Below, piece by piece: positions 61,408-63,248 of a stretch of 64,000 bases of DNA (positions are counted from its first letter, which is position 1; each line of letters starts with the position of its first letter). Source of the stretch: a virus; IMG/VR virus record IMGVR_UViG_3300009149_000012, positions 1 through 64,000 of that record, one strand, 5' to 3'. Both the position numbers and the translations under genes were made by a program. Below the pieces are notes generated by a model. It worked only from the letters and a program-made list of their open reading frames with translations. It was not told the DNA's origin and searched no databases.

Positions 61408-61582
61408 ATTGCAGGTATCGGACTGCACTCCGTTAGTTTTAGGTTATGGACCCTCTAAGGTGCGAGCGGCGAGCCGATCAACTCAGTTGCAGGTTTTGGT
61501 CTGCACACCGTTGGTTTTAGGCATGGGGCGACATCGACCAGTACATGTTGCAGGTATCGGACTGCACTCCGTTAGTTTTAGG
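61408..61582 (-). CRISPR. Mini CRISPR array 1: three 36-nt repeats, intervals of 42 and 25 nt
   Basis: Repeats at 61408-61443, 61486-61521 and 61547-61582. Minus-strand consensus CCTAAAACTAACGGAGTGCAGTCCGATACCTGCAAC with a 3' TGCAG/CTGCA hairpin. Confidence 0.85.
61447..61481 (-). promoter_or_regulatory. Class A promoter motif occupying the 42-nt spacer
   Basis: TTGATC GGCTCGCCGCTCGCA CCTTAG AGGGTCC A. Confidence 0.75.
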
Positions 61583-61744
61583 GAGCCTCGTAGGACCCCA
61601 ATAAAATCGTGCACTTAGAAGGCGGGTTGCGAGCGCTTCAAAAAAGGGATCGCTTTCAGGGTTGGGATCACCATGGTTTCCAAGAGCATGGGGTCCAAAA
61701 TGGCTATCATTTCAAAGAGCTAGAGCGCTTGCGAGCGCTCCCGG
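61583..61744 (-). promoter_or_regulatory. CRISPR leader-like region
   Basis: Non-coding and adjacent to the consensus repeat. IHF-like sites at 61605-61617 and 61710-61722, each followed by TTGCGAGCGCT (61627, 61729). Confidence 0.55.
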
Positions 61745-63088
61745 TCACGCAGCTATATCTACACCGCTCGCAGTCAAAGCCGGTCGATTTGCAATGTTTC
61801 GAGCGGCGTTGATGTCTCGATGCAACCGAAGTCCACATTTCGGGCACGTTCCAATCGGACCATGCTCGAAAGCCCAAGCTTCCTTATCCAAATGCCCGCA
61901 CGCAGAGCATTTCTGAGAAGTGTAGGACGGGTCTACTTCGCCCACACGTTCAAGGTACCTGCCTAGCACTATTGTCGCCGTAAGCCGCATGGAGGAAGTC
62001 ATCCGGCTCCCCATCTGACCGATACGCTGGCTAAGCTTTTCGATCTTGATGCTTTCAACCCGTTCGAGCGGCTTAAGCACCTCATTGTAGATGAGGTGAC
62101 GAACATGGCGGGTCATCTTCTGCTGTATACGGCCAACCGGAAGCCCTTTTGCTTGCCGACCCGCAATTTGCTCGGCGTAGAGCTTCTCCCGGGGGTTTCG
62201 GACAAGCGTGCCGTCGCTCATGGCAGCCAAGACCACCAAACCAACATCGATACCCATGACAGAGCCAGGGATCGGGTCGGGCAACTTGCGAATGGGTACC
62301 TCTTGCTTGATCGAGGCCCACCAACCATCGGCTTGTCGACGGATGCTCACCCCTTCCAAAACGCGTCCCCAAGGGACGTCTCCCGGCAAGCGCCCCTTGA
62401 TCTTCAGACCATTGAACATTACCTGGCAATCGTAGAAATCCGGGTTCTTACCCCTCGCACCGAACGAACCCGTCTTGAAACACATGCCGCTTCGGGTTTG
62501 GAGCGGCATGTGGTCGCTCTTCCGACGAAACTTCTTTCGCCTCTGACCCTTAGCACGACCACTTCCATCCGCTGCCTTGCCGCTTTTGAAGTAGTTCTTG
62601 ACGAGCGCTTGGTATGTCCCAGCCCGAACCTTCACTTCCTCATCGTGATGGAAAAGGTGGGACTGAAAGAACTGGTAGTCATACTTGAACCCGAACCGCT
62701 CGATTTCTTTACTGAACGGAAGACGAAGCTTGCAGCCGGGGACCTTCTTTGTCGCCTCATGGACCTTCTGGTTCCACTCCAAGTACATCTGGATGTTTTC
62801 ATCCTTTGTCTCTTGGGCTTCTTTCGGGGTCATCCCGTCGTAGTCGACCGGGGGAAAGCACGGTACCCCTCGCTTTGTCCGGTACCCTGGATCAATCACG
62901 AGCCCCGCTTTGACAGCGTAGATCTTTTGGACTTCGATCAATTCCTCGATTTGCTTGACCATCCAATTCCAGCAACGACGCAAGTCGTCTTCGATGAGCG
63001 TTAGCTTCCGCTCGGTTTCCTTGTCCGGGTACAGTCGGATCATGAAGCCCCGAACTTCGTTCCCAGGTTGACAGACGAACTTTTTCAT
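61745..63088 (-). CDS. tnpB: Compact TnpB/Cas12f-like RNA-guided nuclease, CRISPR-associated (type V-like effector)
   Basis: IRLYP...CWN N-terminus, RuvC-I MGID281VG, RuvC-II IKIE350KL, VDPSYTSQKCSACG...CPKCG, RuvC-III HRD425INAARNI; repeats on both sides. Confidence 0.9.
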   Translation of the reverse strand: MKKFVCQPGNEVRGFMIRLYPDKETERKLTLIEDDLRRCWNWMVKQIEELIEVQKIYAVKAGLVIDPGYRTKRGVPCFPPVDYDGMTPKEAQETKDENIQMYLEWNQKVHEATKKVPGCKLRLPFSKEIERFGFKYDYQFFQSHLFHHDEEVKVRAGTYQALVKNYFKSGKAADGSGRAKGQRRKKFRRKSDHMPLQTRSGMCFKTGSFGARGKNPDFYDCQVMFNGLKIKGRLPGDVPWGRVLEGVSIRRQADGWWASIKQEVPIRKLPDPIPGSVMGIDVGLVVLAAMSDGTLVRNPREKLYAEQIAGRQAKGLPVGRIQQKMTRHVRHLIYNEVLKPLERVESIKIEKLSQRIGQMGSRMTSSMRLTATIVLGRYLERVGEVDPSYTSQKCSACGHLDKEAWAFEHGPIGTCPKCGLRLHRDINAARNIANRPALTASGVDIAA

Positions 63089-63096
63089 ATTGTGTT

Positions 63097-63232
63097 CCCT
63101 TAGTTTCAGGGGATTCGATGTGACGTCGTTGCAGGTATCGGACTGCGCTCCGTTGGTTTTAGGGCCGTGGTTCCCGTGGCCTTCCTCAGATTGGGCACCG
63201 TTGCAGGTATACCGGACTGCACTCCGTGAGTT
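63097..63232 (-). CRISPR. Mini CRISPR array 2, upstream of the effector
   Basis: Degenerate repeat 63200-63232 (2-nt loop insertion), 36-nt spacer, full repeat 63128-63163, 17-nt spacer, partial repeat 63097-63110. Confidence 0.8.
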
Positions 63233-63248
63233 GCTCTACACCGGCAAC

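Follow-up and report, generated by a model that had tools for sequence, protein, structure and literature searches.

A 447-aa phage-encoded, TnpB-derived type V-like effector associated with CRISPR arrays

The stretch of DNA analysed here (the window, 64,000 nt) comprises positions 1 to 64,000 of IMG/VR virus record IMGVR_UViG_3300009149_000012, a virus contig of 148,881 nt (the full record is designated G000), and encodes on its minus strand, at 61745..63088, a TnpB-fold RuvC nuclease of 447 amino acids (aa) that is flanked on both sides by 36-nt repeats. This locus raises the question of whether the protein is an ordinary TnpB of the IS200/IS605 type or the effector of a CRISPR system, and, if the latter, which RNA would guide it. 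Investigation of the protein, its relatives and their repeats showed it to be a genuine type V-like effector, derived from TnpB and associated with CRISPR. Regarding its mode of action, we regard it as probable, while leaving considerable room for doubt, that it serves as effector in a type V CRISPR-Cas family that is derived from TnpB, carried by phages and guided by CRISPR RNA (crRNA) via a pseudoknot in the repeat, with arrays that have become fused to expression signals.

The effector family and its link to repeat arrays

The effector has WED, small REC, RuvC and zinc-ribbon TNB domains. It is matched by the Pfam profile Cas12f1-like_TNB at 1e-15 and reaches 99.7 bits with the NCBIfam model guided_TnpB, narrowly below the cut-off of 100. 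Residues D281, E350 and D425 and the cysteines C394, C397, C415 and C418 are invariant in an alignment of 44 homologues, and the protein has the type V trait of a single TnpB-derived split RuvC domain with an intact D-E-D triad. Residues 9-14 are also conserved in this alignment, so that the start giving 447 aa is correct and an alternative 432-aa call is not. The AlphaFold2 model (predicted local distance difference test score, pLDDT, 90.6; predicted template modelling score, pTM, 0.82) confidently predicts a TnpB/Cas12f fold. A preliminary description of the locus, made from the letters of the DNA alone, had named the TnpB fold, the RuvC triad and a C4 zinc ribbon and had proposed structure prediction as a check; the profile matches, the alignment and the model agree with it. 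Its remark that adaptation genes and tnpA are missing extends to the whole 148,881-nt record, in which Cas1, Cas2 and the Y1 transposase TnpA were sought and none was found, and in which the TnpB-like gene is present as a single copy.

Of the 111 homologues that a word-indexed search listed, about 97 reach E ≤ 1e-42, with 31-62% identity, and nearly all are unnamed or tagged 'transposase'. A profile search of 1.84e9 representatives gave 63 matches at E ≤ 1e-40, most spanning the whole profile and some being fragments; beyond these 63 the scores fall to generic TnpBs, which match mostly at profile positions ~200-420, the RuvC half. The N-terminal ~200 aa of the effector are specific to the family, whose full-length relatives form about 60 clusters (at 50% identity) on phage-like contigs. 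A tree, as proposed in the preliminary description, was computed with FastTree against the nearest TnpBs, 55 of which were sampled, and it recovered a core family clade with a support of 94 together with a small sister clade with a support of 96. An alignment-based locus search of viral, genome and metagenome collections yielded mostly generic TnpBs, the family members among them being those of loci L001, L002 and L161. The neighbourhoods of the relatives are phage-like, with many small open reading frames (ORFs) without assigned function and with genes for lysozyme, AAA_24, a RuvC resolvase and thymidylate synthase.

In each of the 11 loci whose downstream DNA is readable, repeats lie on the 3' side of the effector gene and on the same strand, and in most loci the first repeat begins 0-10 nt past the effector stop codon. 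The relatives' repeats are 36 nt long and number 2-10 per locus: seven in L242, eight plus two dispersed in L243, two in L244, seven in the decaying array of L245, ten in L247, four in L256/L259, seven in L271, two in L241, three plus two dispersed in L002, and six of a different sequence in L001. Spacers of the regular arrays are 33-39 nt long and mostly unique. The motif TGCAG-N8-CTGCAAY was found in none of about 240 loci of generic TnpBs. In the opposite direction, a scan of IMG/VR for pairs of GTGCAG-N8-CTGCAAC units separated by 40-65 nt returned five contigs, and all three of the repeat-only stretches with upstream sequence (L256, L258 and L259) carry a family effector, at 41% identity. 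The link between repeat and effector therefore holds in both directions, and homologues that never co-occur with the repeat, which the preliminary description had named as grounds for abandoning its proposal, were not what was found. Contigs L272 and L274 break about 30 nt past the effector stop codon, inside an apparent first repeat.

The nearest outgroup inspected, P0164 (locus L273; 28% identity to the effector), also has an array of four repeats, and because of this an independent capture of CRISPR by the effector family, as suggested in the preliminary description, is no more than a possibility. The P0164 array (L273:1815-2074) begins within the last codons of the gene and consists of ~37-nt repeats with ~36-nt spacers; its first two spacers are 92% alike and its first two 72-nt units 92% identical, which looks like array growth through tandem duplication. 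Other arrays show further peculiarities. One spacer is present twice in L260:130-235. In L243 one unit, made up of a degenerate repeat end, a segment of ~35 nt and a full repeat, occurs twice (6260-6336 and 7040-7116) before different genes, and repeat-spacer units therefore disperse within the phage genome. The decaying array of L245 (5464-5874) has spacers of 35, 29, 17 and 17 nt. In L242 a perfect 29-nt inverted repeat, each copy of which is a hairpin, surrounds the effector and its array (3931-3959 and 5752-5780), and may serve in mobility or recombination or else act as two terminators.

The repeat pseudoknot and the search for a second RNA

Alignment of 32 distinct repeats gave the consensus nnnnnAACCAACGGnGTGCAGnCCGAnACCTGCAAC, in which the two strands of a 4-bp stem A flank GTGCAG, TGCAG pairs with CTGCA as stem B, and the helices interleave. 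The 3' 25 nt of the repeat are accordingly predicted, with the support of covariation, to fold as an H-type pseudoknot, with 2 nt left between its end and the spacer. The pairing holds in 99% of cells, with double-sided changes in seven of the nine pairs; the observed values were reached in none of 500 shuffles, and sliding partners pair in only 9-42%. Stem A covaries richly, even inside the decaying array of L245. The 3' hairpin of the preliminary description survives in part, its stem being stem B, while the simple hairpin gives way to a two-stem pseudoknot. A generic structural pattern for the pseudoknot found only sites at chance level beyond the copies already defined by sequence. Among individual repeats, those of L245 differ in stem A yet remain self-complementary (CGAG/CTCG, CGAT/ATCG, CGGC/GCCG, CGTG/CACG), and the 5' strand of stem B in L274 is TGCGG instead of TGCAG.

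A trans-activating crRNA (tracrRNA) was sought as an anti-repeat, using k-mer complements of at least 8 nt from -1.5 to +2.5 kb in eight loci. The longest complements were 8-11 nt, equal to those of shuffled repeats and without a conserved position, and in the window no complement to the repeat of 8 nt or more was found. In L243, L244 and L247 the upstream genes abut the effector start and the arrays abut its stop codon. When the 3' end of the effector ORF was folded as an alignment together with the first repeat, covariation was detected in stem A alone and none in the ORF 3' end. The window has a 162-nt gap between the effector stop codon and the first downstream repeat (61583..61744, minus strand), with a strong hairpin, GGAGCGCU-CGCA-AGCGCUCU, after the stop codon. 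This gap folds marginally better than shuffled sequences (z -1.86), lacks conservation in the family and is absent from most relatives; it is probably a leader or an attenuator. No Rfam family matched in the region. The lack of a visible tracrRNA, remarked upon in the preliminary description, was thereby confirmed in eight loci and fits the crRNA-only effector that it had considered possible, while an omegaRNA encoded at 61583-61744, the alternative it had set against its own proposal, found no support in a gap so weakly folded and so rarely present.

Repeats, expression signals and spacers in the window phage

Five 36-nt repeats and one truncated copy flank the effector, with inter-repeat gaps of 36, 17, 25 and 42 nt (repeat coordinates are given in gene orientation, on the minus strand). 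Upstream of the gene lie the degenerate repeat R-2 (63200-63235), with a diverged 5' third and a 2-nt insertion in the loop between the stems, both of which are kept; a 36-nt spacer (63164..63199); the full-length repeat R-1 (63128-63163), in which the outer pair of stem B is lost (CGCAG for TGCAG); and a 17-nt spacer followed by the 5' part of a truncated repeat, CCTGAAACTAAGGGAA (63095..63127, the repeat part being 63095-63110), with CACAAT between the truncated repeat and the effector ATG. Downstream are the consensus copy R1 (61547-61582); a 25-nt spacer (61522..61546), the only ordinary-looking one of the downstream array; R2 (61486-61521), with a changed linker and with stem A altered from CGGA/TCCG to CGGT/ACC(A), pairing being largely kept; a 42-nt 'spacer' (61444..61485); and R3 (61408-61443), which ends in AAT. 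At up to three mismatches three repeat matches were observed, compared with any match in 0 of 100 shuffles, and the repeats are hence not due to chance. The descriptive statements of the preliminary description all check out, including the five repeats and one partial copy, the four gap lengths and the single copy in which the stem loses its outer pair.

The irregular gaps can be read from expression signals. A promoter-like motif, GTTGATCGGC-N12-CCTTACAGGGTGC, lies at 63549..63583 (minus strand) directly 5' of the leaderless ATG of a 99-aa gene upstream of the cassette (63249..63548, minus strand; weak DUF7445 match). The motif GTTGATCG-N14-CCTTA-N8-AT[G/A] has seven copies in the 148.9-kb genome, at 20385 (+), 61482 (-) and 63583 (-) of the window and at 116094, 136700, 146496 and 148557 (-) of G000, and six of the seven end in an ATG that opens an ORF of 48-124 aa. 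With a -35-like TTGATC, a -10-like TAGAGG or TACAGG and a leaderless layout, it looks like a phage-specific promoter class yielding leaderless mRNAs, and the copy at 63583 probably drives the effector transcript too. The 42-nt 'spacer' is a copy of this putative phage promoter in which the usual ATG is ATA, followed by R3, GAGGAATC and the ATG of a 207-aa gene (60776..61399, minus strand). As this promoter copy lies upstream of R3, which stands 8 nt before that ATG, R3 is predicted to be the 5' leader of the mRNA of the 207-aa gene, giving the gene a promoter-plus-repeat leader. The 17-nt 'spacer' and the truncated repeat are, from their position and sequence, the effector's own leader, the ACGGAG of the repeat being mutated to AGGGAA, a Shine-Dalgarno sequence 7 nt before the effector ATG. 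The irregular spacing therefore appears to reflect repeats fused to expression signals rather than odd spacers, as the preliminary description had supposed. Judged by these features, the arrays of the window phage are reduced and fused to promoters and leaders.

Similar placements occur elsewhere: L002 (three cases), L243 (two) and L245 have repeats, solitary or terminal, that precede an ATG by 10-37 nt. The full record has in addition a solitary half-repeat, comprising the pseudoknot part only and ending in AAT (G000:C1:131041-131076, minus strand, corresponding to L251:1500-1535), immediately downstream of a tRNA cluster; 15 nt separate it from the ATG of a 138-aa ORF. The 99-aa and 207-aa genes that flank the cassette are paralogues (51% identity over 57 aa, E 4e-16, BLASTP).

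Regarding spacer targets, the last spacer of L247 (6004-6042), after which comes a truncated repeat, encodes RILLYGEEKLGK(S), which is the Walker-A segment of the AAA_24 gene of the same phage. The spacer shares 31 of 36 nt with this gene at 6205-6240; all five differences are synonymous and four of them fall within the first 12 nt. It lies in sense orientation, and the 5' flank in the phage's own gene is GTTC. This match is as expected for a guide of a DNA-targeting Cas12 with a 5' protospacer-adjacent motif (PAM) and a 5' seed, and suggests that it is directed against a close relative. Comparison of all spacers with the fetched loci and the window phage's own genome, at nucleotide and peptide level, gave only this AAA_24 match and the promoter copies in the own genome. 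For the 36-nt spacer of the window, INPHARED and the phage's own genome gave no match, nor did IMG/VR when searched exactly with the first 22 nt; the 25-nt spacer had no target in INPHARED, IMG/VR or the fetched loci, and the whole cassette and the L247 array gave no protospacer in INPHARED. The spacer search that had been proposed thus left the window's spacers unmatched and produced one match in a relative, which lends the earlier idea of inter-phage competition a concrete, if single, case.

Taken together, the features suggest the following mechanism. The locus would be transcribed from the minus strand, probably off the leaderless promoter at 63583, and the 3' ~25 nt of each repeat would fold into a small H-type pseudoknot immediately 5' of the spacer. 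The effector would need no tracrRNA: it would bind the 5' handle formed by this pseudoknot and use the following ~17-25 nt or more as guide, the intact RuvC site cutting matching DNA, probably beside a 5' T-rich PAM (TTC from the single case above). Its role would most likely be the attack on related, competing phages. The upstream 2.5 repeats would make up the leader of the effector gene, ribosome-binding site included, and the downstream array would provide one 25-nt spacer, a phage promoter copy and, in its last repeat, the 5' leader of the next gene.

Relation to known systems and alternative explanations

In Foldseek searches with the effector model the best matches were CnCas12f1, ISDra2 TnpB and ISFba1 TnpB (template modelling, TM, scores 0.50-0.61), followed by AsCas12f, Cas12p, LaTranC and Cas12m2, with 8-19% identity across matches. 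Profile comparison with PDB sequences aligned the RuvC/TNB half only; the best natural match was ISDra2 TnpB (2e-19), which one AI-designed nuclease outranks. No full-length kinship to solved Cas12j, Cas12m, Cas-lambda, Cas12p or TranC was detected, the matches covering the RuvC/TNB half and being no better than those to TnpB, and none of the NCBIfam Cas12 subtype models came near its cut-off. Nesting within a characterised Cas12 subtype, which according to the preliminary description would have removed the novelty of the effector, is therefore not seen among solved or NCBIfam-modelled subtypes, none of which matches beyond the RuvC half.

The effector resembles Cas12f (Cas14, type V-F) in its size class (400-550 aa), its TnpB-like WED-REC-RuvC-TNB fold and its CRISPR arrays, CnCas12f1 (8hr5) being the best Foldseek match (E 1.4e-15, TM 0.51). 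However, Cas12f uses a long tracrRNA and a dimer, while no anti-repeat above the shuffled level was detected for the effector family; sequence similarity is limited to the RuvC/TNB half, and the Cas12f2 model scores 42 bits against a cut-off of 450, so the effector was not assigned to Cas12f. With the TnpBs of IS200/IS605 and IS607 elements (ISDra2; TM 0.50/0.60) it shares the fold, the RuvC triad and the zinc ribbon, but its locus has no Y1 transposase, a single gene copy, no conserved 3' structure and arrays in place of an omegaRNA, and membership was rejected here as well. The C2c8 model (V-U2, NF038192) gave 35 bits against a cut-off of 350, with a best member at E 4.9e-14, and this match is nonspecific because ordinary TnpBs from cyanobacteria reach 100-150 bits with it. 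The label 'Cas14j/k' was uninformative, as this hidden Markov model name is also found in genome reports on enteric bacteria.

Among compact or phage-borne systems, Cas12r of Thermus Lalka phages is a phage-encoded, TnpB-derived, crRNA-only effector for which a single repeat is enough, with a proposed role in conflicts between mobile elements (bioRxiv 10.64898/2026.04.20.719267). Here too the gene is directly followed by short arrays with degenerate repeats, and adaptation genes are missing; compared by description, it is set apart by its length of 564 aa, 29-nt repeats, A-rich PAM and thermophilic hosts, and size and repeat rule it out as the identical system. Cas12j (CasPhi, V-J) is similarly phage-encoded, with 36-nt repeats, a crRNA-only 5' handle and no adaptation genes, but it has 700-800 aa, and similarity is confined to the TNB domain (7odf, E 4.6e-5). 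Cas12m (V-M) is compact, close to the TnpB root and crRNA-only, whereas its RuvC domain is degenerate, it only binds DNA and its match to the effector is weak; MvCas12m, at 610 aa, was ruled out as the identical system. The Cas12p 'hacker' (V-P) is also compact, phage-borne and near the TnpB root; it has 500-700 aa and requires a 118-nt tracrRNA and thioredoxin (bioRxiv 10.1101/2025.01.20.633832), and these properties, together with a weak match, exclude identity. A description that does fit is that of V-U6 to V-U45, a set of 40 further array-linked TnpB branches without other cas genes and often on mobile elements (PMC10691335), and the effector family, compared with them by description only, may be one of these branches.

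Several points weigh against guidance by crRNA alone and an anti-phage role. TnpB-sized proteins usually require an RNA scaffold of at least 100 nt, and a tracrRNA that pairs by 4-7 nt, or a scoutRNA-like RNA, would escape the 8-nt screen. Stem B is less secure than stem A because its covariation is limited to L241 (CTTGG/CCAAG and CTCAG/CTGAG), the stem being otherwise invariant. Both the PAM and the idea of competition derive from a single spacer in one relative, no protospacers for the window's own spacers were found in INPHARED or IMG/VR, and only two of these spacers look ordinary, so that the immune role of this copy may be in decay.

Were the protein a usual TnpB of the IS200/IS605 type that takes its omegaRNA from 61583-61744, with the repeats acting as transposon-end hairpins, this would explain why the window and L002 have repeats on either side of the gene and why Pfam and PHROG label the protein as a transposase; but TnpA was not found, the gene is single-copy, relatives have 7-10 regular repeats with unique spacers on one side only, the 162-nt gap is missing in relatives and weakly structured, and the NCBIfam IS200_TnpB model scores 49 bits against a cut-off of 425. 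This explanation is largely refuted and we give it hardly any credence. A better case, although still a rather improbable one, can be made for a Cas12f-like effector that needs an undetected tracrRNA or scoutRNA, whose gene could lie inside the ORF, within the 162-nt gap or at another place in the phage. The best structural matches (CnCas12f1, AsCas12f and TnpB) depend on a tracrRNA or omegaRNA, a size of 447 aa argues for an RNA scaffold, and in Cas12p a pseudoknot of 4 nt with the tracrRNA (AAAC:UUUG) can suffice (bioRxiv 10.1101/2025.01.20.633832). Opposed to this are the eight loci without a complement above the shuffled level or in a conserved position, the genes and arrays that abut the effector in three relatives, the ORF 3' end without covarying structure, and a repeat that has its own covarying structure beside the spacer, like those of the crRNA-only Cas12a, Cas12j and Cas12r.

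It is also conceivable, though on balance unlikely, that the family is truly CRISPR while its immune function has decayed in the window phage, the repeats persisting as cis-regulatory RNA. The effector would then bind the pseudoknot in the leader of its own mRNA, regulating itself, as well as in those of the 207-aa gene and of the gene at 131 kb, controlling translation or processing. This would accommodate the presence of only two ordinary-looking spacers beside a 42-nt promoter copy, the derivation of the effector's Shine-Dalgarno sequence from a truncated repeat, the positions of R3 and the half-repeat 8 and 15 nt before ATGs, the comparable repeats before ATGs in L002, L243 and L245, and the similar array decay in L245 with its 17-nt spacers. 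The catalytic triad is nevertheless intact and most relatives have regular arrays with unique spacers; dense phage genomes place any intergenic element near a gene start, and 'extraneous crRNAs' from terminal repeats are a known by-product elsewhere (bioRxiv 10.64898/2026.04.20.719267). A further proposal combines both functions: the repeat would be a portable RNA tag before phage genes, including that of the effector, with guides taken from mRNA 5' ends and/or regulation of these mRNAs, so that the system excludes related phages at conserved genes and regulates itself. We put this forward tentatively and do not expect it to hold; if it did, no self-sufficient Cas12 smaller than this tracr-free effector with its pseudoknot handle would be known.

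Should the preferred explanation, guidance by crRNA only, be correct, the family would represent the smallest tracr-independent Cas12-type nucleases (~430-480 aa, with a handle of ~25 nt), attractive for delivery-limited genome editing, and a clean example of a phage-resident TnpB lineage turned CRISPR effector. Two further biological features are notable: repeats have become fused to promoters, ribosome-binding sites and leaders of genes, and one spacer is apparently directed against the conserved ATPase gene of a related phage, from which its carrier would escape by synonymous seed changes. CRISPR warfare between phages and a possible regulatory reuse of repeats thereby become directly testable.

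Regarding the virus record itself, its CheckV completeness is only 31% at 148.9 kb, and the phage may be very large. Of six large ORFs tested, four (370-1334 aa) had no PHROG match and two matched families of unknown function. A 770-aa protein with a VWA domain adjoins the cassette.

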